A DNA stretch of 64,000 bases from Octopus vulgaris (taxonomy: Eukaryota): NCBI GenBank assembly GCA_951406725.2, contig OX597819.1, positions 133,300,001 to 133,364,000 on the forward strand, given 5' to 3'. Below the pieces are notes generated by a model. That model saw only the letters and a list, made by a program, of their open reading frames with translations. It ran no database searches and had not been told where the DNA came from. A program made the translations under genes and the position numbers. Numbering within the stretch: position 1 is the stretch's first letter; every line of letters starts with the position of its first letter. Of the stretch, positions 22,221 through 63,605 are shown one piece after another.

Positions 22221-22896
22221 GCGGCTCTTCCCCACAGGCCTTTCGCGATACCCTTCAAACCAGCTACTCTTCAGCAAACCCTCGTTTTCTCCAGACACAG
22301 ACTCGTATTTCTAGAAGACTAAGCAGTGCATTAACTCGCATGAAGCATCCGTCAATTTACTGCGAAGAGAGAAAATGCCTGAACGGAAATCATTGTTTTA
22401 ATACATCAGCTGTAATAGTTCGAAAATTGCAACGGGAAGTACGGCGAAGACGGCGAAATGTTTATTACAGTAATTTCCTGTAAAACATTTGTGCAAAGAT
22501 CTCTAACAACAGAAATCAACATTAAAAAGCAATTTCAAATTAACAAACAAGTTCATTATACTAATAATAAAAATACATATAGCGAAAATATAAGGAAAAT
22601 AAATTTTAATAGGAAATTGTTTATGAAAATGAAAACAATTCGTTTTTAGAGGAACAATGACATATAATGGCCGCGAAAATATAGAATGCCACACATGGTT
22701 TGTTGTGTGTTAAGACATTAGCTTCCCAATGGCGTGGCTCTAGGTTTAGACCCACCGCTGGGAACCTCGGTCAAGTGTATAAAAAACACTTTTCAGGAAT
22801 AATAGTGGTTTATTGGAGAGGAAGGCTTGGGAATTTTTCCGTACATATACACATATATATATATTAGAAGGTTTGGAGATGATGTACAGGTATTTT

Positions 22897-23086
22897 ATAT
22901 TAGAAGAAATGAGGTACTCAGAAATTCGGCTGGCTTTATATTTACAGATATTTATTTGTATATTACATGTTTTTATACATCATATAACATATATCATATA
23001 TGATGTATAAAAACATGTAATATACAAATAAATATCTGTAAATATAAAGCCATCCGAATTTCTGAGTACCTCATTTCTTCTAATAT
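22897..23086. repeat. Near-perfect palindrome (arms of about 90 bp), probably a PLE tail pair
   Basis: ATATTAGAAGAAATGAGGTACTCAGAAATTCGG.. / ..CCGAATTTCTGAGTACCTCATTTCTTCTAATAT. Confidence 0.85.
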
Positions 23087-23109
23087 ATATATATATATTA
23101 TTTATATTA

Positions 23110-35047: not shown

Positions 35048-36154
35048 TATACCTCAGGTCATCCCATAAGTTCTGTCCGAATTGTGGATAAAGAATCCAA
35101 GTGATCAAGTGTTATATTTAATTGAAAGTTAATCATCAATGTACTTTCCCTGATTATCTATGACTTACTTCCATCTATTTACAAGCTTTTTAATCCCATC
35201 AATGTAAAACTCTTTTGGTTTCAAAGCGAAGAACTCTGAAATGTCAAGTTCGACCTCCTCCTGGCTTGCGAAAGTTGTGTCCCCCTAATTATTCTGTAAA
35301 CTATGAAACAAATGGCATCCTGAAGGAGTAAAGTCGGGAGAATAAGTTGGATGAAGAAATGTTTCCAAACCGACCTCTTCGATCTTCTGTGATGTGATCT
35401 TTGCATTGTGGGGTTGCGCATTGTCCTGATGAAACATCACACGTTTTCGATTCACTAAAGCGGCTCTTTTTTCCTTCAAAGCTTGGTTCAAACGCTCTAA
35501 TTGCTGACAGTAGACTTGAGCATTGATTGTTGCATTAGGTGGTAACAATATAAAGTGAATTACGCCTTTGCAATCGCACCAAATAGAGTAGAATATTTTT
35601 CCCATGAAATTCCCTTCTCGGTTGTGGTTGAGCATTTTCCCTTTTACCAAGCCACTGTTACGACGTTTAACATTTCGATAGAAAATCCATTTTTCGTCAC
35701 AAGTCTATCGAAAAAGGGTGAAATGAGTTTGCGAGAATGGAGAGAAGAGCAGATGTCAACTCGGGATTTGCGGTTGCTTTCGCACAATACATGAGGCACC
35801 CATTTTCCAAGTTTAGGAAACTTTCCAAGTTGTTGAAGATGACGATGAACTGTTGTATGGTTTGAAGTAAGCTTTATTGCCAATTCTTCAACTGATAATG
35901 ACGGATTTTCTTCAAGTAATGCCTCAAGGAACTTATCATCAAACTCAACTGGACATCATATTCGATCTTCAACTTCAGTTTTGCAAACGATCTTCTGCAA
36001 GTTCTTTCATTCAAGCACTTTCCCATAAACTGAGTATATGTTTCGAGTCACTTCGGCTGCAGAGTTACCTTTATTGTACTCATAAAGAATTATATGTGCC
36101 TTAAATGCTCCTTGGATACTTCCATGTTGAAAGGGTTTTAACCAAAGCAATTTT

Positions 36155-37430
36155 AGGGTGTCCACGAAGTCTGGGTACATGGAATAAAATCATAACATAA
36201 ACAAATATAAGAAATAATAATTTTCCTTTTTTACTTTTGTTTAAATTAAATTTAAAAAATACTTTACTTTTCTAAATTTATTTGTTATTTTTTCTACAGA
36301 TGATCGAATGATGGCTTTGTCTAAAGAAGAAGAATCCCAGATCGAATGTTGGATCTGCCTAAAGAAGAAATAATCGAATTAGTATTATTAAGTGGATGAG
36401 AGGGATGGTCTTATCGCAAAATTGCGGAAGAATTTAATCTTCGACACCCTTATAGGTAACCTTTTTTTTACTGCCGTCGGGAAATTGATCAAGAAATTTA
36501 AAGAAACAGGCAGTGTTTTGGATAAACCCCGTTCCGGGCGACCAAAGACTTCAGATGAAACGAAAGAGGCTGCCATGGCTAAAGTTTCTGCTAGCCCAAA
36601 GAAATCACTTCGTCGGACATCCACCGTGTTAGGTGTTCCAAAACCAACCATCCACAAAATGCTGGTTGAGGAAAAGTTTCATCGATGCAACCTACAGATT
36701 TTGCATCACTTAAATGAAGACGACCCTGGTAGACGAATGTAGACGTGCGAATGGTTTTCAGATAAATTGGATGAAAATATCAATTTTACGAAAAACTTTG
36801 TTGTTCAATGACAAAGCTACGTTTTATGTTAATGGTGAGGTCAACAGACAGAATTTTCTATACTGGTCTCGAGGTAATCCACATTGGATGGATCCATCCA
36901 AACAGCAAGGCAGCAAAAAGGTGATGGTGTGGTGTGGTTTGTGGAAAGCTCATGTTCTAGGACCCTTCTTCATTGAACATGTAACGGATGAGACTTATGT
37001 AAACATATTGAGAGACAAATTAATATCTCAAATTGAGCGCCTAGGCGAGGGCCTTCCAAATTGGTTTCAGCAGGATGGGGCCCCTACCCATTTTGCCACA
37101 ACTGTTAGAGATTGGCTTAATGACACTTTTCCTCACTGGATTGGAAGAAGGGCTCATATGGAAAGGTCCCCTCGTTCACCAGACCTTTCTCCCCTTGATT
37201 TCTTTTTCTGGGGTATGTTGAAAGAGAAAGATTACAATAAAGATTACAGATTTAAAACACATGAGAAATAACACATTACCGGTCAGTGTGCTGAAATTGA
37301 TGGCAATGTAGACTTATTTAATCAAGTTCACCTGAATTTTGCAAGGCGCAAAATCAAGTTATGCATTGGTCTTAAAAATGATGGAAATCACTCCCATAAG
37401 TTCTGAAAATATTATTTATATTTAACATTA
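36155..37430 (+). mobile_element. Tc1-like transposon (duplicate copy, right end garbled)
   Basis: HTH region KFKETGSVLDKPRSGRP; WFQQDGAP; SPDLSPLDFFFWG. Confidence 0.8.
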
Positions 37431-38444
37431 TAATTTTCCCTGATTATCTATGACTTACTTCCATCTATTTACAAGCTTTTTAATCCCATCAATGTAAAAC
37501 TCTTTTGGTTTCAAAGCGAAGAACTCTGAAATGTCAAGTTCGACCTCCTCCTGGCTTGCGAAAGTTGTGTCCCCCTAATTATTCTGTAAACTATGAAACA
37601 AATGGCATCCTGAAGGAGTAAAGTCGGGAGAATAAGTTGGATGAAGAAATGTTTCCAAACCGACCTCTTCGATCTTCTGTGATGTGATCTTTGCATTGTG
37701 GGGTTGCGCATTGTCCTGATGAAACATCACACGTTTTCGATTCACTAAAGCGGCTCTTTTTTCCTTCAAAGCTTGGTTCAAACGCTCTAATTGCTGACAG
37801 TAGACTTGAGCATTGATTGTTGCATTAGGTGGTAACAATATAAAGTGAATTACGCCTTTGCAATCGCACCAAATAGAGTAGAATATTTTTCCCATGAAAT
37901 TCCCTTCTCGGTTGTGGTTGAGCATTTTCCCTTTTACCAAGCCACTGTTACGACGTTTAACATTTCGATAGAAAATCCATTTTTCGTCACAAGTCTATCG
38001 AAAAAGGGTGAAATGAGTTTGCGAGAATGGAGAGAAGAGCAGATGTCAACTCGGGATTTGCGGTTGCTTTCGCACAATACATGAGGCACCCATTTTCCAA
38101 GTTTAGGAAACTTTCCAAGTTGTTGAAGATGACGATGAACTGTTGTATGGTTTGAAGTAAGCTTTATTGCCAATTCTTCAACTGATAATGACGGATTTTC
38201 TTCAAGTAATGCCTCAAGGAACTTATCATCAAACTCAACTGGACATCATATTCGATCTTCAACTTCAGTTTTGCAAACGATCTTCTGCAAGTTCTTTCAT
38301 TCAAGCACTTTCCCATAAACTGAGTATATGTTTCGAGTCACTTCGGCTGCAGAGTTACCTTTATTGTACTCATAAAGAATTATATGTGCCTTAAATGCTC
38401 CTTGGATACTTCCATGTTGAAAGGGTTTTAACCAAAGCAATTTT

Positions 38445-39768
38445 AGGGTGTCCACGAAGTCTGGGTACATGGAATAAAATCATAACATAAACAAATATAA
38501 GAAATAATAATTTTCCTTTTTTACTTTTGTTTAAATTAAATTTAAAAAATACTTTACTTTTCTAAATTTATTTGTTATTTTTTCTACAGATGATCGAATG
38601 ATGGCTTTGTCTAAAGAAGAAGAATCCCAGATCGAATGTTGGATCTGCCTAAAGAAGAAATAATCGAATTAGTATTATTAAGTGGATGAGAGGGATGGTC
38701 TTATCGCAAAATTGCGGAAGAATTTAATCTTCGACACCCTTATAGGTAACCTTTTTTTTACTGCCGTCGGGAAATTGATCAAGAAATTTAAAGAAACAGG
38801 CAGTGTTTTGGATAAACCCCGTTCCGGGCGACCAAAGACTTCAGATGAAACGAAAGAGGCTGCCATGGCTAAAGTTTCTGCTAGCCCAAAGAAATCACTT
38901 CGTCGGACATCCACCGTGTTAGGTGTTCCAAAACCAACCATCCACAAAATGCTGGTTGAGGAAAAGTTTCATCGATGCAACCTACAGATTTTGCATCACT
39001 TAAATGAAGACGACCCTGGTAGACGAATGTAGACGTGCGAATGGTTTTCAGATAAATTGGATGAAAATATCAATTTTACGAAAAACTTTGTTGTTCAATG
39101 ACAAAGCTACGTTTTATGTTAATGGTGAGGTCAACAGACAGAATTTTCTATACTGGTCTCGAGGTAATCCACATTGGATGGATCCATCCAAACAGCAAGG
39201 CAGCAAAAAGGTGATGGTGTGGTGTGGTTTGTGGAAAGCTCATGTTCTAGGACCCTTCTTCATTGAACATGTAACGGATGAGACTTATGTAAACATATTG
39301 AGAGACAAATTAATATCTCAAATTGAGCGCCTAGGCGAGGGCCTTCCAAATTGGTTTCAGCAGGATGGGGCCCCTACCCATTTTGCCACAACTGTTAGAG
39401 ATTGGCTTAATGACACTTTTCCTCACTGGATTGGAAGAAGGGCTCATATGGAAAGGTCCCCTCGTTCACCAGACCTTTCTCCCCTTGATTTCTTTTTCTG
39501 GGGTATGTTGAAAGAGAAAGATTACAATAAAGATTACAGATTTAAAACACATGAGAGAACACATTACCGGTCAGTGTGCTGAAATTGATGGCAATGTAGA
39601 CTTATTTAATCAAGTTCACCTGAATTTTGCAAGGCGCATCAAGTTATGCATTGAAAAATGATGGAAATCACTTTGAAAATATTATTTATAAACATTATAA
39701 TTAAATAAAATTGGTTTGTTTTTAAAGTATGTGTTAATCCCCATGTACGCAGACTTTGTGGACACCCT
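38445..39768 (+). mobile_element. Tc1-like transposon with both TIRs; transposase disrupted
   Basis: TIRs AGGGTGTCCACGAAGTCTGGGTACATGG / CCATGTACGCAGACTTTGTGGACACCCT; same transposase motifs. Confidence 0.88.
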
Positions 39769-42209: not shown

Positions 42210-42229
42210 TATATATATATATATATAAT

Positions 42230-43250
<1,021 letters not shown>

Positions 43251-43805
43251 GATGACGTCACGCTACGCTAGATTGACCACCTAACAGGCATTATAAAACC
43301 AAGCATTTCACAAAAAATCACTAGAACCACCCAGCGAACTTCCACCATGGGTCATCACAATTGCTTAAGGTAAAAATGAATTCCTCGCTCTTTCGGAAAC
43401 ATCAATCTTCTGTATTGACCGCTTTCCACCACTTTGATCTGTTTTTTGTATTGAATACGTATCGCCACCGTGGGCCACTGCATCGAACACTTTGAAATAT
43501 ACTTCAAACTATATATCAACTATACATGAACTATATATCAACTATACATGAACTCTAAGATGTCTGACTCCGTTGTGTATTATAAATGAATTTCTTGTGT
43601 TTGACGGCATGAGCTGTCTCTTTTTATATATAACTTTTTTTGATAAGGTTCATTTCAGGAACTGAAACATGTTATAATGTATATATAAAAATTAAAAATT
43701 GTATAATACAGCAGCATTTTCGAACTTCATTTTTTACAAATATATACCTACTCGTATACGAACTAATCCTATTATAAATATCATATCACGTACGAGCTCC
43801 CGAAA

Positions 43806-45206
43806 ATGCCTGCTAAAAAAGACACCAACGACATCTCCTCAATAAATGAAGAGATACTGAAAGAATTGAAAAGCATAAATTCAAACCTAACAGCAGTGTT
43901 AAACAAACTCAACTTAACACCTCGACCTTCTACACAAACCAACGAGGAAACCGAATCGAATAAAACACCCTCCGAAATATTCGAGAAAGTTGAAAATCTA
44001 TGCGATACAATGACGACATTCTTCACAAACTTTACGAAACAAGAGCAACAAAAAGAAGGAACACATGAGAAGAACCGAGCAACTTCAACATTACAAATAA
44101 AGAACCAAGTCCTCCCCCAATGGAGAACACTACAGCGAAACAGAAAATTCGCTTTTTGGAAAATGATACAAAATCAGAATAAAGCAGAGATTTACCAAAA
44201 ATGGCTAGACTCAACACCCCTAGTCATACCCCGTAAATTACAAATCAAACCCATCTCGGAAGAACCAGAAGAACAAAGAAAACTTAGAGAAAAAATGTCA
44301 TTAGAAAAAATGAAGATGGAAATAGAACTACTTAAGCTGAGAGCTAAAACGAATGAAGAAAAAGTAAAAACCATAGACGAGGAAATCAACGAAGAAGTCA
44401 TCAAACTAATAGACGACAACAATACTGAAACATTAACAGCACTATGGAATGAAGAATGTGAAAAAGAGGAACTTAAGTCCCTCCAACGATGGGAAAAGAG
44501 CGCCATCTGGTTTCTAGATTATGAAACCAACTTCAAAAATGAACACATATCCAACAACCCCTTCATAAAATTAAGCAAATCAAAACCAAATACCAATAGA
44601 ACGGAACAACCACCAAGAAATCCTACCACACTCTACACCAGAAAAGTACACCTAAAACACACCCCACACTACCTACACCAACCCCAAAACACCTACAGAG
44701 GCCCACCACACCAGTTCGAAAATAGACATACCAACAGAGCAGAACAACCACCAAGAAATCCAAACACACTCTACACCAGAAAAATGCATTTAAAACGCAC
44801 CCCACACTACCTACACCAACCCCAAAACACTTATAGGGTCCCACCACACCATTCCACGAACCTAAGAGCCACAACATACAATACTATAAAATACAACCCA
44901 CATAACCAAACCAAAACGCTACTACCAAACATCCACCCCAGGAACCAACCATACAACCATAACAAACAACAAATGCACTACGGAGGAAACAACTACCAAC
45001 ACAATACACCTGAGGAACTAAGACGTAACACTAGGTTCAACAACAGACTCCAGAACAGAGCACCACAAACTCACTCTGACAATTATAACAACATGAGACA
45101 GATAAATAATAGCTTTGAACATAACTACACCAACCATTTTTTAGACCCCACACACAGGAACAGGGACACACGATGGCAAAGGACAAACAAAAGAAACCTC
45201 AGGTAA
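43806..45206 (+). CDS. PLE ORF1, coiled-coil-like E/K-rich protein with N/H/P/Q-rich tail
   Basis: 466-aa open frame; 46-aa (138-nt) internal duplication starting at 44592 and 44730. Confidence 0.75.
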   Translation: MPAKKDTNDISSINEEILKELKSINSNLTAVLNKLNLTPRPSTQTNEETESNKTPSEIFEKVENLCDTMTTFFTNFTKQEQQKEGTHEKNRATSTLQIKNQVLPQWRTLQRNRKFAFWKMIQNQNKAEIYQKWLDSTPLVIPRKLQIKPISEEPEEQRKLREKMSLEKMKMEIELLKLRAKTNEEKVKTIDEEINEEVIKLIDDNNTETLTALWNEECEKEELKSLQRWEKSAIWFLDYETNFKNEHISNNPFIKLSKSKPNTNRTEQPPRNPTTLYTRKVHLKHTPHYLHQPQNTYRGPPHQFENRHTNRAEQPPRNPNTLYTRKMHLKRTPHYLHQPQNTYRVPPHHSTNLRATTYNTIKYNPHNQTKTLLPNIHPRNQPYNHNKQQMHYGGNNYQHNTPEELRRNTRFNNRLQNRAPQTHSDNYNNMRQINNSFEHNYTNHFLDPTHRNRDTRWQRTNKRNLR

Positions 45207-47470
45207 TTAAGATAATCAATCTCTCAAACAAAGAACTTACACCTAACGAAATAAGCATACTCTCCAAAGGACTTAAATTTACACCCACCCCACAACGTTC
45301 TAATTATTATGAAATGAAAGATGATATTTCGGAATTTTGCAGAAAACTAAGACTCACCGAGGCATTTCAAGACAAACAAATAGAGGAGGACTCAATAGCT
45401 AGAAACAAGAGCAATTACACCCCCACCAAAGGTAAGAATAAAGCCTTAGACCGCTATTGTGACTACATAACTAATTTCCCGTTTCAATTCATCAAGAAAC
45501 AAAAACACAGCCCTAACTTCAACAAAAGAGAATGGAACAACCTCATCAAACTAAGAGAAGACAAAACAATAACAATTAAGGAGGCAGATAAGGGCAACGC
45601 GATAGTAATAATGAATACAAACAATTATAAAAATTTAGTGCTATCCCTATTAAGAGATGAAACGTATTATGAAAGGGCCCAACAGTATAACCAGCAAAAA
45701 ATAATGCAAAACCTTAGGACATTAATCAACACATACCAAGAAGGACTCACGAACAAGGAGTATGAATACATCACTAACTTCAAATGCAAATCGAGTTTGT
45801 TCTATGGTATCCCTAAGGTACACAAAAGCCAAACCATTAGAGAAACGTGCAAAACATCCACCGACACACTCATCAAAATCCCTTCACCAAATGATCTTAA
45901 ACTAAGACCGATAATAGCAGGGCCAGCATGTGAAACTCACCGCCTCAGCAATTTCTTAGACACACTTCTTAAACCTTTCCTAAAACACATCAAAAGCTAC
46001 GTAAGAGACGATATAGATATGCTCAACCACCTCCCTAAAACAGTCAATGAGAAAACCCTTCTAGTATCATTCGACGTAGTTAATCTTTATTCTAACATCC
46101 CTCACAACCTAGGAATAGAAGCAATCACCTTCTGGCTGAATAACTACCCCTTTGAACTCCCAACTCGCATAAACAAAGACCTTATAATAGAAGGACTTAG
46201 ATTCATTTTAGAGAACAATTATTTTATTTTTGACAATGATTTCTACAGGCAAAGATCGGGAACAGCGATGGGCACGCGTACTGCACCATCTTTTGCCAAC
46301 CTAGTGATGGGATACCTCGAGAAAATACTATACCGGATGACACTCGAGAAATATGGCAACACCTTCGCCACCTATATCCATAACAACTGGAAAAGATACC
46401 TCGATGACTGTTTCATCATCTGGGACAAAGGCATAGAGAAACTTGAGGAATTTAAAATTCTATTAAATGGAATAAATGACAATATACAATTCACGATGGA
46501 CCACAACGAAAAAGAATTACCATTTTTAGACATCCTCATTAAGATAACCGGCAACAAAATAGAGACAGATATCTACTATAAACCGACAGACTCTAAACAG
46601 TACCTACCCTTTGATTCATGCCACCCACGACACACTAGAATGAATGTCCCTTTTTGTTTAGCTAGAAGGATTTGCACCATAATATCAGACACAAACACCC
46701 GACACACACGTCTCCAGGAACTTAGAACCACACTCACAAATAGAAACTATCCACAGCCCCTAATAGACAGTGCAATCCAACGGGTACTTAAATTAAGTAT
46801 AGAAGACCTGAGACAAACAAAACCAAAAAAGAAAGAACAATTAAAAACCCTTCCCTACATCTCTACACACAACCCACTCAACAATGAGGCCTTCAACACC
46901 ATACTACAAAGCACAGCCCTACTAAAGGGAGACCCAAAGATGAACCGGATCCTCGAAACACACACCATCATTAAAAGTAAACGGCAACCAAAATCCTTGA
47001 AAAGGATTTTAACCCAAGCTACACTGCACTCAACATCAACCACAAAACCAGCAGTTAGAAAATGTGGAAGGCCCAACTGCGGAATCTGTGTCATCTTGAA
47101 AGAAGGATCAGAATTTATACTGGAACAAGGCCACCAGTTCACCATTAGAACAAACTTCACCTGCGCATCAGAAAACTTAATTTACGTCATAACATGCGCA
47201 GGCTGCAATAGGCAGTATATAGGCCATACAAAAAATAGCTTACGTAACAGGATGGCGGTGCATAAATCACAAATTAGAAACCCTGATTACCGCAAAATAC
47301 CGGTCAGCGGACACATAGATAGATGTGCTGGAAATGTAAATCCGAAATTTACAACTAACCCGCTCTATAAATTCAGTGACAACGCAACCTTCACACAACG
47401 CCAAAATAAAGAACTATATTTCATAAAAAAATTTAGACCAAGTTTAAACACCCTGGGCCAGGAATACTGA
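45173..47470 (+). CDS. PLE ORF2: reverse transcriptase plus GIY-YIG endonuclease
   Basis: INLS..KGLKFTP, ADKGN, PKVHK, LRPII, SFDVVNLY, GTAMG, RYLDD, FLD, YYKPT, CGRPNCGIC linker, LIYVITCAGCNRQYIG. Confidence 0.95.
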   Translation: MAKDKQKKPQVIKIINLSNKELTPNEISILSKGLKFTPTPQRSNYYEMKDDISEFCRKLRLTEAFQDKQIEEDSIARNKSNYTPTKGKNKALDRYCDYITNFPFQFIKKQKHSPNFNKREWNNLIKLREDKTITIKEADKGNAIVIMNTNNYKNLVLSLLRDETYYERAQQYNQQKIMQNLRTLINTYQEGLTNKEYEYITNFKCKSSLFYGIPKVHKSQTIRETCKTSTDTLIKIPSPNDLKLRPIIAGPACETHRLSNFLDTLLKPFLKHIKSYVRDDIDMLNHLPKTVNEKTLLVSFDVVNLYSNIPHNLGIEAITFWLNNYPFELPTRINKDLIIEGLRFILENNYFIFDNDFYRQRSGTAMGTRTAPSFANLVMGYLEKILYRMTLEKYGNTFATYIHNNWKRYLDDCFIIWDKGIEKLEEFKILLNGINDNIQFTMDHNEKELPFLDILIKITGNKIETDIYYKPTDSKQYLPFDSCHPRHTRMNVPFCLARRICTIISDTNTRHTRLQELRTTLTNRNYPQPLIDSAIQRVLKLSIEDLRQTKPKKKEQLKTLPYISTHNPLNNEAFNTILQSTALLKGDPKMNRILETHTIIKSKRQPKSLKRILTQATLHSTSTTKPAVRKCGRPNCGICVILKEGSEFILEQGHQFTIRTNFTCASENLIYVITCAGCNRQYIGHTKNSLRNRMAVHKSQIRNPDYRKIPVSGHIDRCAGNVNPKFTTNPLYKFSDNATFTQRQNKELYFIKKFRPSLNTLGQEY

Positions 47471-47640
47471 TACAAAAGATAAGTCCTCCGAAAAGGAGAA
47501 CCAAATTTCACCACGGCCGCTACTTCAAACAGACACTCACTCTGACGGAAATATGCCTTAGTAAAAAAAGGGAAAAAAATTCTTTCGTGCAAATCTGACC
47601 CTGATACATACGATACAGCTAAGGGTCAGACCCGATTCTG

Positions 47641-48040
47641 ATTGGTCAACAAGTTGATGACGTCTAGCTCTGCTAGAATGGACAGGATACAAACAGGGGA
47701 CAGTCATTAGTCAGAATATTGATGACGTCCTTTTCTGCTTGAATAGTCACCTAACAAGTACAGACAGGGGACAGATCTAATGTAGCTATAAGTCGTGATT
47801 GGGCAGAATCTGAATGACATCCCGCTATGCTTGACTAACGAAGCGACTGGTCAAGACAGGAAACAAACAAGAGGGAGTTATAATGCAGCGATTGGTCAAA
47901 ATAATGATGACGTCCCGTTCCACTTGATTAAAGCCAACTAACGAAACGATTGGTCAAAACATTGATGACGTCACGCTACGCTAGATTGACCACCTAACAG
48001 GCATTATAAAACCAAGCATTTCACAAAAAATCACTAGAAC
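47641..48040 (+). promoter_or_regulatory. Putative PLE promoter: five ATTGG-N9-TGATGACGTC modules, TATA box and Inr-like TCACT
   Basis: Modules at 47641, 47706, 47798, 47891 and 47949 (two are degenerate); TATAAAA at 48005-48011. Confidence 0.55.
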
Positions 48041-48448
48041 CACCCAGCGAACTTCCACCATGGGTCATCACAATTGCTTAAGGTAAAAATGAATTCCTCG
48101 CTCTTTCGGAAACATCAATCTTCTGTATTGACCGCTTTCCACCACTTTGATCTGTTTTTTGTATTGAATACGTATCGCCACCGTGGGCCACTGCATCGAA
48201 CACTTTGAAATATACTTCAAACTATATATCAACTATACATGAACTATATATCAACTATACATGAACTCTAAGATGTCTGACTCCGTTGTGTATTATAAAT
48301 GAATTTCTTGTGTTTGACGGCATGAGCTGTCTCTTTTTATATATAACTTTTTTTGATAAGGTTCATTTCAGGAACTGAAACATGTTATAATGTATATATA
48401 AAAATTAAAAATTGTATAATACAGCAGCATTTTCGAACTTCATTTTTT

Positions 48449-48492
<44 letters not shown>

Positions 48493-48927
48493 ATCCCGTA
48501 AACCACAAAAAATCCAGACCACATCGTTGGATTAAGTATCACTTTCATCTTCTATTTCATATTTTGTTTATTATCCTATTTTATCCCCCTTAACTTAAGC
48601 CCACATCTCCGTTAAAGTTACGATCGCCATTTTTGTTTTGTTTACATCTCAATATCTGTTCTCGAAGGCAGAAATTGGCTTCAGAATTAAATAACCCTTT
48701 CTTCACACCTTAATATATACATTTTAATATATCTTCACTCATTTTCTTTTTTTTCCACCTTCCTTCTCTCCCCGTCTGTGTATATGTGTGTGTGTGTGCA
48801 CGTGTATGTATATATGTGTGCGTGTATGTATATATGTATGCGTATATATGCATGGACGTGAACTTTCACGAACTTTAGATAGATAAATAATCTTTCCTCT
48901 CTTTCTTACTCTCTCATCTCTCATCTT

Positions 48928-49915
48928 TCAGATACTCTATCTTCTAATTAGCCTTAAGATTAAATAACGTTTAATATTGTTTAATATTGTTTAACATTGT
49001 TAATAATTTTTCAGATACTCTATCTCTAATTAGCCTTAAGAATAAACAACGTTTTTAACCACACTTTAACATCTTCTAATTTTTTACCCACACTCTAATA
49101 TCTTTCTAATTAGCCTTTTTACCCACATTTTAATACTTGTTAATATATTTTCAGATACTCTATCCTCTAATTAGCCTTAAGATTAAATAACGTTTTTACC
49201 CACACTTTAATATATTTTTGAATACTCTATCTTCTAATTAGCCTTAAGATTAAATAACGTTTTTACCCACACTTTAATATAATATTTAATATAATATTAA
49301 TATTGTTAACATATTTTCAGATACTCTATCTCCTAATTAGCCTTAAGATTAAATAACGTTTTACCCACAAACTTTAATATTGTTAATATTAATAATACTC
49401 TATCCTCTAATTAGCCTTAAGATTAAATAACGTTTTTACCCACACTTTAATATATTTTTGAATACTCTATCTTCTAATTAGCCTTAAGATTAAATAACGT
49501 TTTTACCCACACTTTAATATAATATTTAATATAATATTAATATTGTTAACATATTTTCAGATACTCTATCTCCTAATTAGCCTTAAGATTAAATAACGTT
49601 TTACCCACAAACTTTAATATTGTTAATATTAATAATACTCTATCCTCTAATTAGCCTTAAGATTAAATAACGTTTTTACCCTCACTTTAACATTTTTACC
49701 CACACTTTAATATATTTTTGAATACTCTATCTTCTAATTAGCCTTAAGATTAAATAACGTTTTTACCCACACTCTAATATAATATTAATATTGCTAACAT
49801 ATTTTCAGATACTCTATCTCCTAATTAGCCTTAAGATTAAATAACGTTTTTACCCACAAACTTTAATATTGTTAATATTTTTTTCAAATACTCTATCTTC
49901 TAATTAGCCTTAATA
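48928..49915 (+). repeat. Tandem array (units of about 60-100 bp, 240-bp higher-order period) directly upstream of LINE ORF1
   Basis: Core ATACTCTATC(T/C)TCTAATTAGCCTTAAGATTAAATAACGTTTTTACCCACACTTTAAT repeated more than ten times. Confidence 0.9.
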
Positions 49916-49974
49916 TCTTCTTGTCTTCTCTCGAACATAGTTAGATAGATAAACAAATAGACAGATTATCCAGC

Positions 49975-53920: not shown

Positions 53921-54043
<123 letters not shown>

Positions 54044-54048
54044 CATAC

Positions 54049-57913
<3,865 letters not shown>

Positions 57914-57914
57914 A

Positions 57915-60063
57915 AATATTTCTACTGAATGTAGGAGGGCTGCTGCGCGGAAACTGTAAAAAGAAAATTTCATTCCTGAGAGACCTTGTGACATGCAATC
58001 AAGCTATATGCATGGCACTCACAGAAACGCATCTTGAACCCGATATAGGTGATGCAGAAATACACATGCCGCAATATGCAGTCATACGCACAGATAGAAA
58101 AGGGAGGAGCCATGGTGGAGTTGCAATGTACATCCGAGATGACCTCACGCCCCAGGTCCTGCTGTCATATTCAAACTCAGTATGTGAAACTCAAATTGTA
58201 CACATAAGAGAACTGAATATCGTCATATGCACTACATATCGCCCACCAGATGCCCCAAAACACTCAGGCATGTTTGAAGACTGCCTAACAAAAATAGGAG
58301 AAGTCCTCACCAACCTTGAACAGCACAACAGTGTATTCTTCATGGGTGACTTTAACCTCCCCAATGTGGAATGGCCTGGGGGGCAGATGCTCCCAGGGAT
58401 GACACACCATCAGCAGGCACAGGTGGAGTCCCTGCTCCATCTCACAAATGCCTCTTTCATGGAGCAAATAGTTCTGCAACCAACAAGGGCAGATAATATA
58501 CTGGATCTCTGCTTCACAAACAATATGGATATTATCCATAATGTTAATGTGATGCCGACAATGATCTCGGATCACAACATAATAGAGCTGTCTATGTATG
58601 GAACAAAAGCCCCCGCAGACACACAGCCTATACGAAGCACCCACCATCTCTCCAACTTAAACTTTCATAAAGCCAACTGGAAGTCGATTGAGAAAGAGAT
58701 CCTCAAACAGGATTGGCCTGAATGTCTCTCCACACCGGACATAAACATGAAACACAAACACTTCATGTCCATAATACAAGCCATATGTGACAAATATGTA
58801 CCAATGTGCAGGGCCACCACACACAAGAACAAAAACAGGATCCCTAGAGAAAGGAGGATTCTTATGAGACGACGGACAAGGATTGCAAACCGCCTGAGCA
58901 AGCACACCAAAAGTGGTGAGAAGTCTCGGCTCGAAAGAATGCTAATGGAAACTGAGAAAAGTCTACATCAGTCCCATGAAAAGGAGAGAGCAGATAAAGA
59001 AGATTGGGTAATAGAAAATATAAAATCAAACCCTAAAGCTTTCTTTAAGTTTGCCAAAGAGACAGCCACAGTGCACCAGAGAATAGGACCTCTCTTCCAA
59101 AAAGATGGCTCTCTCACAGGAAATCCCACAAGGATAAGTGAAATACTGAACGAACAGTTCCAAAGTGTGTTCACTACGCCTCTAGGACACAGGCAAGTAA
59201 ACAACCCAGAAGAATTCTTTGCCACTTTACCTGCGGCCAAAGAGACAAAAATTGAGTACATCAACATCGAAGATGATGATATCACACTAGCCATTGATGA
59301 GATTGACACAAACTCAGCTGCTGGACCTGATGGATTCCCAGCGATCCTTCTCAAATCGTGCAAACGAGCCCTTGCAAAACCGCTACAGCTTCTTTTTCAT
59401 AGCTTTCTTGCAAGTGGTAAGTTCCCAGTCAAACTGAAAGAGGGGTAATATGCCCTATCCATAAGGGAGGTAGCAGAGCAGATGCTAAAAATTATAGGCC
59501 TATCTCTCTGACCTCACACATCAGCAAAGTCATGGAACGAATAGTCCGTAAGAAACTAATCATGTTCCTTGAAGAAAATGACTTACTGTCTGACACCCAG
59601 CATGGATTTCGACCAGGTAGAGGCTGCCTAACACAGCTCCTGCAACACTATGACTGGGTGTTGAAACAGCTACTAAATGGCTCAAATGTGGATGTAATAT
59701 ATCTTGACTTTGCAAAAGCCTTTGATAAAGTCGACCATGGTATGATCTGTCACAAACTGCGTGGTCTCGGCATAGGCGGGAAACTTGGAGAGTGGCTGCA
59801 CAACTTCCTAAAAGACAGAAAACAGGCAGTTGTGAGCAATGGAGCCACCTCCAAGGAAACGCAAATAACAAGCGGTGTCCCACAGGGCACTGTCTTGGGG
59901 CCACTGATGTTCATAGTGGTCCTTTCAGACTTGCCTTCAGTTGCTGCGATGACCACCCTTGCTAGCTATGCAGATGACACAAAAGTCTCCCACGCAATAC
60001 AAAACCCTGAAAATATCGCGCATCTGCAACATGAGCTGGACACAATATACAGGTGGGCTGAGT
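57915..60063 (+). mobile_element. CR1-group LINE family B (relative of family A), endonuclease through RT, no own 3' end
   Basis: ORFs 57988-59448 and 59532-60068; ends at WAE after YADD. Confidence 0.88.
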
Positions 60064-61426
60064 CATAATATGCTGAACTCCAACCAGCATGGATTCCGTA
60101 ATGGGAGAGATTGCCTGACGCAGCTACTGCATCATTTTGATGACATTTTGAGAGCCTTGGGAGAAGGTTCCAACACTGATGTCATCTACCTTGATTTCAG
60201 CAAGGCCTTTGACAGGGTTGATCATAAGATCCTTCTGAGAAAGCTGTCCAATATTGGTGTCACTGGAAAGCTGCTGCAGTGGATCAAGTGCTTCCTGTCT
60301 AACAGAACCCAACATGTTGTAGTCGAAGGAGTCAAATGCAGCCCAGCCAAAGTCAGCAGTGGTGTCCCACAAGGTACTGTGTTGGGCCCACTTCTCTTCA
60401 TCATCTACATAAATGATATTACTGACACCATCAAATACAGTAACATCAGAACCTTCGCTGATGATTCCAAGCTCCAGAAGGTCATCAATGGCATGGATGA
60501 CCGAATAAACCTTCAGTCAGACCTACTGGCTATTGTCCAATGGGCGGAAAAGAATAACATGTTGCTAAATGAAGACAAATTCGAACTGATCCACTTTGGA
60601 AGGGAGGACGCTCTGAAACTCCCATACTCTCTTCCTTCTGGAGAAATTCTCATGGCATCCAACAACATCAGAGACCTGGGAGTAACAGTGGACAACAACA
60701 TAAGCTGGGCTACACATATAAGCAGCAAAGTTGACATGGCCCGCAGAATGTGTTCCTGGATTCTCAGAACCTTCCAGTCGAGAGATTCCCACGCTATTAT
60801 CCTTCTCTTCTCCACTTTTGCCCGACCCCACCTTGAATACTGCTGTCCACTGTGGTCTCCCTACACAAAACAAAACATTATGAGAATTGAAGCTCCCCAA
60901 AGGTCAATCACAAAAAAGATAGATGGCATGTCAGACCTTGACTACTGGGGTAGACTAGAGAAGCTGAAATTGTATTCACTCCAACGACGCCGTGAACGCT
61001 ACATTATCTGTATGATGTGGAAAATATTCCATCAGCACTGTCCGAATGATGTTGGCATCACCTTCAAAATGCATCCAAGGCTTGGACCACGTGCCATCCG
61101 TCCAAACCAAAAATCTAAATCGCATCACATAACGACAATACGGTACAACTATTTCACCTCAATTGGACCCGCTCTCTTCAACATTACACCGGGACACGTC
61201 AAAAAAGAAACTGACCACACAAAATTCAAGAAGTCTCTGGACAAATTCCTTCAAACAATACCGGACAAACCACCCACACCCGGATATGTCTCCGCAAACA
61301 ATAACTCTCTGCTCGAATGGGCCTTGGTGCCCAAATCCTGAACTGAAAGACTTCGCCAGGTGGTGCTATTAAGTTAGACATGGCCTGGGCCAATACTGGC
61401 CAAAACCTTTCTAAGTTATTCTAAGT

Positions 61427-61428
<2 letters not shown>
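60060..61428 (+). mobile_element. CR1-group LINE family C 3' portion fused to family B
   Basis: Near-identical reverse complement of 54250-55605; (TTCTAAGTTA) tail. Confidence 0.9.
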
Positions 61429-61502
<74 letters not shown>

Positions 61503-61528
61503 TTTATATATATATATATATATATACA

Positions 61529-61584
<56 letters not shown>

Positions 61585-61603
61585 ATATATATACATATAT
61601 TTA

Positions 61604-61643
<40 letters not shown>

Positions 61644-61647
61644 TTTA

Positions 61648-61684
<37 letters not shown>

Positions 61685-61822
61685 TAAATATTAGGGAATA
61701 AATCCAAATTTACAGGGAAAAAAAATCAGATTTAGGATTAAATCCAATTTTATAGTAAAATATTATAAAATATTATTAGAGACAAAACCACTATTTTGCA
61801 AAACAAACAAGGAAAGACTTAA

Positions 61823-62626
61823 TCAATACATAAAATTTTCATAAATAGTCAAAAAAACCGCCACTACAATCGTTTCTTGTCTTGATCGACAATCTTCAGG
61901 TGGACTTCCAATCTTCGGTACCTGGTCCAATTCAGCACGATTCTTTTCTAAATGTTTAATGTGTCTCAATGAATTTGAATATATGGCATCAGGAACTTGC
62001 TGTTTGGATGTCTGATCTAAATTCAGAAGATGTGTTTTGTATTTCTCAGATGACTTATTTAGATACTTTTCAAAATGAGATCGATTCACTTCAGGTAAAT
62101 AAGGAGAAGGAGAAATATCCCTTTTCTCAAATGATTCCCCCCAAGTTTTTGTGAAAAAGTCTGTTTCTCTTTTAGCTAATCGTGGATCATTCAAAACAGC
62201 TGGTAGATTAACAGTAGCATTGTAAATAGTCCATTTAAACTGATCTTGAACTACAGAAGGTTCTTTATTACTGGTCAAGTGTGGTGATGAGCATTCACTG
62301 ATACCAGTTTTGAAATTTTGCGGAAATCCACTGTTACGTCCATAGCCTGATCCAGCATAGACATGGTCCCGGACAACATGATCTTCATAGTCTTTGTCAC
62401 TTACACCTTCTAGGGGTAAGGAAGGGCACACCTCATTTACACCATATCGACAAACGTAAGATCCACCTTCTTTGGAACAATGAAAACTCCGCAGATGATA
62501 ACAGAACTCCTTTGGAGACTTGAAATGTCCAGTTTTTTTGCAGACAACACAGACTTTCCATTGACTTGGAATCCCTGAATTGCTTTGGCTTGTCCATGGT
62601 TGAGAATTCAATGTAGATGATGCCAT
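61823..62626 (-). pseudogene. VPS54: Uninterrupted 5' fragment (238 codons) of VPS54 (GARP complex subunit) fused in frame to 29 codons of the hammerhead module; probable retrocopy
   Basis: DQFKWTIYNATVNLPAVLNDPRLAKRETDFFTKTWG..PYLP..ELDQVPK matches the VPS54 N-terminus as I recall it; invertebrate-type Cys/His region EGGSYVCRYG..CPSLP; similarity stops at 61913. Confidence 0.88.
61861..61903 (-). ncRNA. Minimal type I hammerhead ribozyme at the 3' end of the VPS54 retrocopy
   Basis: CCAC-CTGAAGA-TTGTC..GACAA-GAAAC-GATT-GTA-GTGG. Confidence 0.85.
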
Positions 62627-62696
62627 GTCATGTCAGAGTAAATCATGCAGACCTATTATTATTATTATTATTATTATATATGTGTGTGTATACATA

Positions 62697-62734
<38 letters not shown>

Positions 62735-63006
62735 ACTCACACATTTATGTATGTATGCATATGTATGTACTTGTAGGGAAATGCGGATGAATATAAATTA
62801 AATTTTATAAATTAATAGTTTTCATTTCTCACTTAAATGCAGACAAGATTTCTTGAATGATGATGTTTTTCCATTTTTCTTCGTATTTATGTAGTTTATG
62901 GCATGTTTTCCACCATCTCAGCAAACAGTCCAGTTTCAAGATAATCGTTGATGCTCCATTTTCCTTCGGATCGCCAAATATATAATATATAAAATTTTAT
63001 ATAAAA

Positions 63007-63303
63007 TATAAAATTTAATTTATATTCATCCGCATTTCCCTACAAGTACATACATATGCATACATACATAAGTGTGTGAGTGTGATATATATATATATAT
63101 ATATATATGTACATATGTATACACACAAAAGAATCGTGCTGAATTGGACCAGGTACCGAAGATTGGAAGTCCACCTGAAGATTGTCGATCAAGACAAGAA
63201 ACGATTGTAGTGGCGGTTTTTTTGACTATTTATTAAAATTTTATGTATTGATTAAGTCTTTCCTTGTTTGTTTTGCAAAATAGTGGTTTTGTCTCTAATA
63301 ATA
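63007..63303 (+). mobile_element. Inverted, internally deleted second arm of the VPS54-hammerhead retrocopy
   Basis: 63007-63126 is the reverse complement of about 62683-62809; 63127-63161 is the last 35 nt of the VPS54 piece; 63162-63303 is the hammerhead module. Confidence 0.85.
63171..63213 (+). ncRNA. Minimal type I hammerhead ribozyme
   Basis: Same sequence as 61861-61903. Confidence 0.85.
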
Positions 63304-63516
63304 TTTTATATATATATATATATATACATATATTTATATATATATATATATATATATACATATATTTATATATATATATATACATATATATATATACATA
63401 TATTTATATATATATATATATACACATATATTTATATATATATATATATACATATATTTATATTTATATATATATATATATACATATATTTATATATATA
63501 TATATACATATATTTA

Positions 63517-63605
<89 letters not shown>

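Follow-up and report, generated by a model that had tools for sequence, protein, structure and literature searches.

The genome of Octopus vulgaris contains a fragment of VPS54 joined directly to the second exon of a Penelope-like element (PLE). We read this arrangement as the product of spliceosomal exon trapping by the PLE followed by PLE retrotransposition, with the splice most likely made in cis (probability roughly 0.62). The VPS54 insert would be one such trapping event, in which the splice acceptor of the element is the trap and its ribozyme a passenger. It lies towards the end of the window, the 64,000-nt stretch of contig OX597819.1 that was analysed. An earlier note on this DNA had proposed a splice-based, poly(A)-independent route to retrogenes, and this core claim is supported by the presence of a real acceptor, by the finding that eight of eight testable host partners end at GT, and by the processed state of the VPS54 copy. 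The parts of the insert, together with a separate PLE copy elsewhere in the window, are as follows.

61427..61691, no strand assigned: (TA)n target microsatellite, downstream flank.
61680..61912, minus strand: PLE exon-2/pLTR module with the long 3' end, 233 nt including an optional tail of ~85 nt; begins right after the PLE 3' splice site.
61861..61903, minus strand: minimal type I hammerhead, called by motif (stem I CCAC/GTGG, CTGAAGA, 5-bp stem II, GAAA), with predicted cleavage after 61865.
61913..62626, minus strand: VPS54 coding sequence, aa 1-238, in frame to a stop at 61823.
62341..62946, minus strand: parental exon 2 (5'UTR plus the first 95 codons), equivalent to G000:C11:56350194-56349603, with AG and GT in the parent.
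62947..62979, minus strand: end of parental exon 1, equivalent to C11:56355198-56355165, with GT next in the parent; the insert lacks the intron of ~5 kb.
62980..63006, no strand assigned: AT-rich joint from the sense copy to the inverted arm.
63007..63127, plus strand: inverted arm, part 1; 121 nt of the exon-2 5'UTR again, 98% identical to the parent.
63127..63161, plus strand: inverted arm, part 2; final 35 nt of the VPS54 segment, preceded by an internal deletion with 1 nt of microhomology.
63162..63306, plus strand: inverted arm, part 3; module with the identical junction and the short 3' end (145 nt).
63307..63603, no strand assigned: (TA)n target microsatellite, upstream flank.
42228..42775, minus strand: another PLE copy, 5'-truncated and unspliced, in which ~400 nt of intron ending in TTTTAG (42371) precede a short-end module.

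Consistent with the earlier description, positions 62626-61913 of the minus strand encode 714 nt (238 codons) of VPS54 without a stop, ending in ..QVPK. The closest relatives of the translation are molluscan VPS54 proteins (identity up to 69%), and homologues continue from the final K of QVPK as K-I/L-F. The VPS54 part of the insert runs into ATTGGAAGTCCACCTGAAGA, the start of the module, and the direct join to the hammerhead module that had been claimed is thus confirmed. Comparison with the parental locus, which the earlier note had recommended, demonstrates that exons 1 and 2, the former followed by GT and the latter flanked by AG and GT, are fused in the insert while the intron of ~5 kb that separates them in the parent is missing, the removal of parental introns being the mark of a processed retrocopy. 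Relative to the parental exon 2, that of the insert shows one substitution and two microsatellites of altered length, which argues for a very recent insertion. As previously described, the copy carries no poly(A): it ends in the PLE module and in (TA)n, which flanks it on both sides, and it does not display the poly(A) tail plus target-site duplication of an L1-type retrocopy, a duplication being unreadable inside the microsatellite.

Parental exons for aa 96-328 were found neither in 270 kb of C11, a stretch containing two gaps, nor by protein search or patterns allowing up to 2 mismatches. Since the parental junction exon is missing from the assembly, an exon end after QVPK is argued from the eight other partners described below. 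A published VPS54 exon boundary at QVPK was not found in the literature search; in vertebrates a 35-nt exon presumably ends right after QVPK. The locus itself (G000:C11:55.94-56.36 Mb) looks mis-scaffolded, in that aa 329-997 map to the plus strand of C11 while exons 1-2 lie on the opposite strand, inverted and beyond the last exon, and the exons for aa 96-328 are missing. Matches to Vps54_N on C15 were dropped, as they did not match VPS54 proteins. Within the insert, the VPS54 frame continues through 29 module-encoded codons to the stop at 61823, giving a chimeric ORF of 267 aa. Neither of the Pfam Vps54 domains is present in this ORF, and of exon 1 the copy retains no more than the final 33 nt, suggesting that the insert is probably a dead pseudogene. 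At ~61840 (minus strand), a one-base difference between the sense module and the inverted arm removes an in-frame stop and adds five codons to the chimeric ORF.

The stretch from 63303 down to 63007, previously taken for a leader, proved to be an inverted arm. Specifically, in reverse complement 63127-63310 matches 61764-61947 (99%) and 63007-63127 matches 62683-62809, and a third copy of the module begins at 63162 on the plus strand. An inverted 5' arm (63007-63306) combined with an optional tail at one end only (233 vs 145 nt) is the form expected of a PLE-mobilised insert. The jump within the arm (63127 / 61947) lands exactly 35 nt above the junction, and its upstream side lacks a GT donor; given the 35-nt vertebrate exon assumed above, the landing point may be the start of an exon.

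At the junction, VPS54 gives way to ATTGGAAGT-CCAC-CTGAAGA..GAAA..GTA-GTGG, a 43-nt hammerhead of the minimal type I (61903-61861, minus strand). It comprises a stem I of 4 bp, a stem II of 5 bp, the CUGANGA, GAAA and NUH core elements and a palindromic, self-complementary helix III, such that the hammerhead claimed at this position is borne out by motif. An Rfam scan of the window returned 0 matches at the gathering threshold, and the minimum free energy structure of the module is not that of a hammerhead (z -0.05 to +0.42); the label is therefore a motif-based one. Compensatory changes were absent among 77 near-identical module copies, and covariation therefore adds no support. Both the lack of Rfam detection and the non-hammerhead fold fit the proposal, in the excerpts of PMC4209133, that minimal PLE hammerheads act as dimers. 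A 20-mer from the module occurs three times in the window (0 expected) and has 872 exact matches genome-wide; the exon-2 start joined at the junction reads ATTGGAAGTCC. The sense module does not end at 61772, as had been thought, and extends to about 61680. Among 41 sampled copies of the module, 23 had the short 3' end and 17 the long one, with 1 unread. The copy at 42230-42775, described earlier as a free module, does carry a T-rich tract and AG before the junction point (at 42370 it is preceded by ..GATATTTTAG), but it is in fact a 5'-truncated, unspliced PLE consisting of ~400 nt of intron and exon 2 (42228-42775). Two further copies, G000:C1:18107575 (L022) and C10:96686469-96687671, carry the same hammerhead below a different upstream sequence (..GAA/, the slash here and below marking the junction), L022 also having a different tail; copies of this type are perhaps another PLE family with a common ribozyme.

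The module represents the second exon of an autonomous PLE, which comprises an exon 1 of ~23 nt, a GT-AG intron of 1.1-2.4 kb, exon 2 with the hammerhead and tail, and then an ORF encoding reverse transcriptase (RT) and GIY-YIG endonuclease. This ORF starts 237 nt after stem I (L086), and the earlier suggestion that the module serves as a terminal exon is thus unnecessary. Long inverted pairs hold ORFs with RT and endonuclease motifs (YRDD and YIGST-type; L083, L085, L086), and the 3' end of the VPS54 insert is the pLTR common to this RT and GIY-YIG element, domains being called from motifs; Pfam did not recognise the ORFs of the module-bearing PLE. Like the Hydra clade of C-terminal EN+ PLEs, as described in the excerpts of PMC8557442, the element has DKT, CxCx5C, CxxC and CxH motifs, a hammerhead and (TA)n targets. 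Unlike that description, it reads RIKWK, with KWK in place of RWK, and exceeds 3 kb with its UTR and intron. Judged by these motifs, it appears to be a Hydra-like PLE. The autonomous copies L083-L089 (G000:C1, C2) have Asn-rich sequence inserted between the RT and the endonuclease, a feature described for Adineta Penelope, and some of them have two donor-bearing repeats in the UTR.

In 15 donor-acceptor pairs from nine loci, the PLE donor ..GAAACTGACTT/GTAAGT or GAAA/GTATGT lies 1121-2360 nt above the acceptor ..TTTTAG/ATTGG. Genome-wide pattern searches, which anchor the junction at the acceptor and whose counts cover neither fusions elsewhere in the PLE nor the AAA/, TAT/ and similar classes, returned 744 matches in five pattern classes. 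The TAG/ class (311 matches) mostly retains the intron. The VHT/ class (376 matches) is mostly spliced PLE, with 95 CTT/ among the 100 matches listed, and 37 of the 43 BVA/ matches are TAA/, reflecting a second GT (+4 donor); the six remaining BVA/ matches include L022 with its different tail. Spliced and unspliced forms of the PLE are thus both present as DNA and two donors have been used. For this reason we take the junction AG to be the working 3' splice site of the PLE's own intron, in agreement with the earlier view of the fusion point as a splice acceptor. Additionally, 39 of 41 sampled non-TTAG copies match exon 1 without gaps over no more than 23 nt, pointing to a transcription start ~23 nt above the PLE donor.

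Other elements are found in the window. An apparently intact but unrelated PLE at 43243-48459 (plus strand) encodes RT and GIY-YIG in a 781-aa ORF whose CX4CxxC linker motif is Neptune-like; it also has an open frame of 479 codons farther upstream and 504-bp direct repeats that are 100% identical. As a partner of the module this full-length element was rejected, for the two share no module, BLASTP gave an E value of 0.14 and a pattern search found no hammerhead core in its repeat. Fold-back (self-inverted) stretches of 190-790 nt at 941-1727, 2085-2367 and 22896-23087 are possibly fold-back copies of other elements. A 2.3-kb tandem duplication with a transposase-like frame occupies 35145-39702, a tandem array with units of about 67-240 nt occupies 48926-49916, and a LINE-like RT stretch duplicated in inverted orientation (53978-55605 vs 60060-61691) adjoins the insert.

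The earlier note had called for a genome-wide check for other host exons at the same AG, and this check succeeded. The VAG/ and BS/ patterns, which capture non-TAG junctions ending in G or C, gave 14 matches representing 11 insertions: two are PLE exon-1 variants (L082, L128) and nine are non-PLE partners. For every one of the eight non-PLE partners with a source in the assembly, the copied sequence stops directly before GT. A retrocopy from a multi-copy Ig-domain receptor family (L081, G000:C15:67916961; family clusters on C5, C28 and C31), now frameshifted, has its source at AAGAG/GTTTGT and consists of at least six exon blocks that end after the transmembrane exon. A PNPT1-like retrocopy (L127, G000:C18:34523018; source GTTG/GTAAGT) consists of six exons with 98-100% identity to the parent, its first block not sharing a reading frame with the second, which would fit the skipping of an exon. 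The source of L130 reads CATG/GTAAGG, its parent being 100% identical and having many paralogues, and that of L124, whose five blocks derive from 400 kb, reads CTTG/GTAAGT. The remaining sources are TACG/GTAAGT (L131), TCAG/GTAAGG (L077) and CACG/GTAT (L126), as well as a repeat (L080) of which six of seven other copies read AAG/GT. GT follows G at a frequency of 0.051 in 100 kb of genome, which gives ~4e-11 for eight independent cases. The cargo is multi-exon and intron-free in several chimeras, including those of VPS54, the Ig-type receptor, PNPT1, L130 and L124. In sequencing runs, 0.87-0.90 of the sampled words occurred in 19 of 24 rows, where the kind of run is mostly guessed and parental mRNA plus PLE would be indistinguishable from a chimera.

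In the proposed mechanism, a host exon chain would be spliced onto the PLE exon-2 acceptor in place of PLE exon 1. The PLE RT would then begin inside exon 2, at one of two points that lie ~145 or ~230 nt downstream of the acceptor, and would copy everything upstream of its start, such that any exon chain on exon 2 would become cargo and poly(A) would be unneeded. The product would enter (TA)n, in many cases accompanied by a second, inverted arm. An RT start inside exon 2 is suggested by analogy with a PLE of another clade, that of Anolis, on which the argument for RT specificity draws: according to the excerpts of PMC11167929, its RT starts in vitro at two internal sites that define the tail, the protein nicks AT-rich DNA, and hammerhead cleavage is unnecessary. 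Predicted hammerhead cleavage after 61865 would fall between the host part and the presumed RT start sites and would part one from the other, so the RNA templates are likely to have been uncleaved, and the ribozyme is an unsuitable candidate for the trap that the earlier note had made of it. This suggests that arbitrary upstream RNA can be reverse-transcribed where the cis-site for RT lies immediately downstream of a splice acceptor.

Readings differ on whether the splice joins one transcript or two. In cis, the source would be a sense PLE within a host intron, an insertion that would be rare, purged or unassembled in this genome. The earlier note had expected such an intronic sense module in the parent gene, and searches downstream of the parents found a same-variant acceptor copy for none of them. 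Specifically, no source PLE was found in the 60 kb searched after the PNPT1 exon, where a gap lies 48 kb on, or in 100 kb after the L130 parent, and four 20-kb stretches at Ig paralogues held only antisense, partial or old (~77-81%) PLE copies. This is also what would be predicted if an abundant PLE pre-mRNA, with its tiny exon 1 and strong acceptor, took the 5' exons of unlinked host pre-mRNAs in trans and the RT copied the hybrid, a reading that we regard as possible but hold only tentatively. The distribution of acceptor variants likewise agrees with trans-splicing. None of the 44 matches to the ACG-variant acceptor lies on C11 (VPS54) or C17 (L130), or on C3 in the 35 Mb that follow the L126 source, and none of the 67 matches to the CAGG variant lies within 93 Mb downstream of the L124 source. 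For L077 the closest same-variant plus-strand copy is 33 Mb downstream of the source, among 100 of 103 matches listed, and for PNPT1 the closest TAG/ matches on C4 are ~16 Mb away, while the retrocopies of VPS54, PNPT1, L077 and L130 are very young (98-100% identical to their parents). However, absence of the source is predicted in cis as well, for an insertion that truncates VPS54 or PNPT1 would be expected to stay rare and to segregate from its neutral daughter. Moreover, both of these genes contain assembly gaps, the source was sought by exact matching, several of the parents belong to multi-copy families, and with nine insertions set against more than 700 PLE-only junction matches, occasional intronic insertions would suffice. 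Splicing in cis is further supported by PNPT1, in which the junction exon is followed by at least 48 kb without a detected exon (two small exons that come after it were not found before the gap) while upstream introns measure 3-12 kb. Were trans-splicing true, the PLE would serve as a retrogene machine acting across the whole genome, independent of poly(A) and of any insertion in the donor gene, and any exon chain could be tagged with an RT start and copied as in-frame N-terminal fragments, such as the Ig receptor ectodomain with its transmembrane helix.

Two further explanations dispense with splicing onto the PLE. The alternative raised by the earlier note, in which reverse transcription begins in the module and the PLE RT then switches to VPS54 mRNA where the two share a short AGAT(T) stretch, draws on the VPS54 junction, where AG and a possible AT(T) amount to as much as 4-5 nt of microhomology with the acceptor: homologues continue K-I-F, and AAG-ATH could provide such identity with TTAG/ATT. 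The inverted arm does contain a jump with 1 nt of microhomology, and, in the excerpts of PMC5131818, switches at microsimilarities (median 6 bp) produce LTR-driven retrocopies. Yet the eight other partners share just 1-2 nt with the PLE intron end and all stop at GT, and there is no reason for a template switch to choose donor sites, rendering this explanation improbable and disfavoured for the family. More doubtful still is a history of independent events, in which a poly(A)-type retrocopy was later struck by a 5'-truncated PLE, or a mis-assembly. Although the region is rich in microsatellites and the parental VPS54 locus is visibly mis-scaffolded (exons 1-2 inverted vs aa 329-997), both arms of the insert carry the identical junction, neither poly(A) nor a 3' part is present, and the junction nucleotide is common to eight other loci.

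Exon trapping by the PLE, the preferred reading, has a counterpart in SVA elements. As in the SVA cases SVA_F1-MAST2, pt_SVA_D6-STK40 and MRPS18A, host exons are spliced to a retroelement acceptor and the hybrid is retrotransposed, one acceptor being used recurrently (excerpts of PMC6139936, PMC12593883). The same excerpts describe SVA as non-autonomous and L1/poly(A)-driven, with an acceptor called cryptic, whereas the octopus PLE is autonomous, uses its own intron end as acceptor, lacks poly(A), and inserts into (TA)n with inverted arms. Furthermore, unlike the amplified SVA subfamilies of those excerpts, the PLE chimeras examined are single insertions. The octopus PLE works like SVA exon trapping, and for PLEs our literature search, which at listing level covered few subscription papers, found no report of splice capture of host exons. 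Several systems share individual features with it. In Adineta vaga, according to the excerpts of PMC3846280, a pLTR in cis suffices for PLE proteins to move host sequence and pLTRs occur in direct and inverted orientation; the NRPS gene described there keeps all its introns and sits between pLTRs, and an antisense template is proposed. By contrast, the octopus insertions carry sense mRNA that has been spliced, lacks its 3' part and meets the PLE at a splice site. Like Penelope of D. virilis and Chlamys-3, the octopus element has an intron in its pLTR/5'UTR, and its hammerhead is of the minimal type I with palindromic helix III known from other PLEs (excerpts of PMC4209133, PMC8557442). In D. 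virilis Penelope, the intron ends where helix I of the hammerhead has its 5' end (excerpts of PMC4209133), and the excerpted accounts of Penelope and Chlamys-3 mention neither host exons at that acceptor nor many spliced genomic copies (PMC4209133, PMC8557442). LTR-mediated retroposition similarly yields incomplete mRNA copies that lack poly(A) and are fused to the ends of retroelements, with the difference that its microsimilarity switches occur anywhere while the octopus PLE joins exon ends at one acceptor (excerpts of PMC5131818). Lastly, unlike the non-LTR retrozyme, which in the excerpts of 10.64898/2026.07.22.740005 forms head-to-tail tandem hammerhead repeats, the insert is an inverted pair.

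Retention of introns by PLEs has been explained by an antisense template (excerpts of PMC3846280). The hundreds of spliced-junction copies, together with the spliced host chimeras, indicate that sense, spliced RNA is copied by the PLE too. Exon trapping of this kind is a defined route to processed gene fragments in PLE-rich animal genomes, one that retrocopy screens based on poly(A) and target-site duplications would miss, and its one-nucleotide junction signature is searchable in any genome with an intron-bearing PLE.
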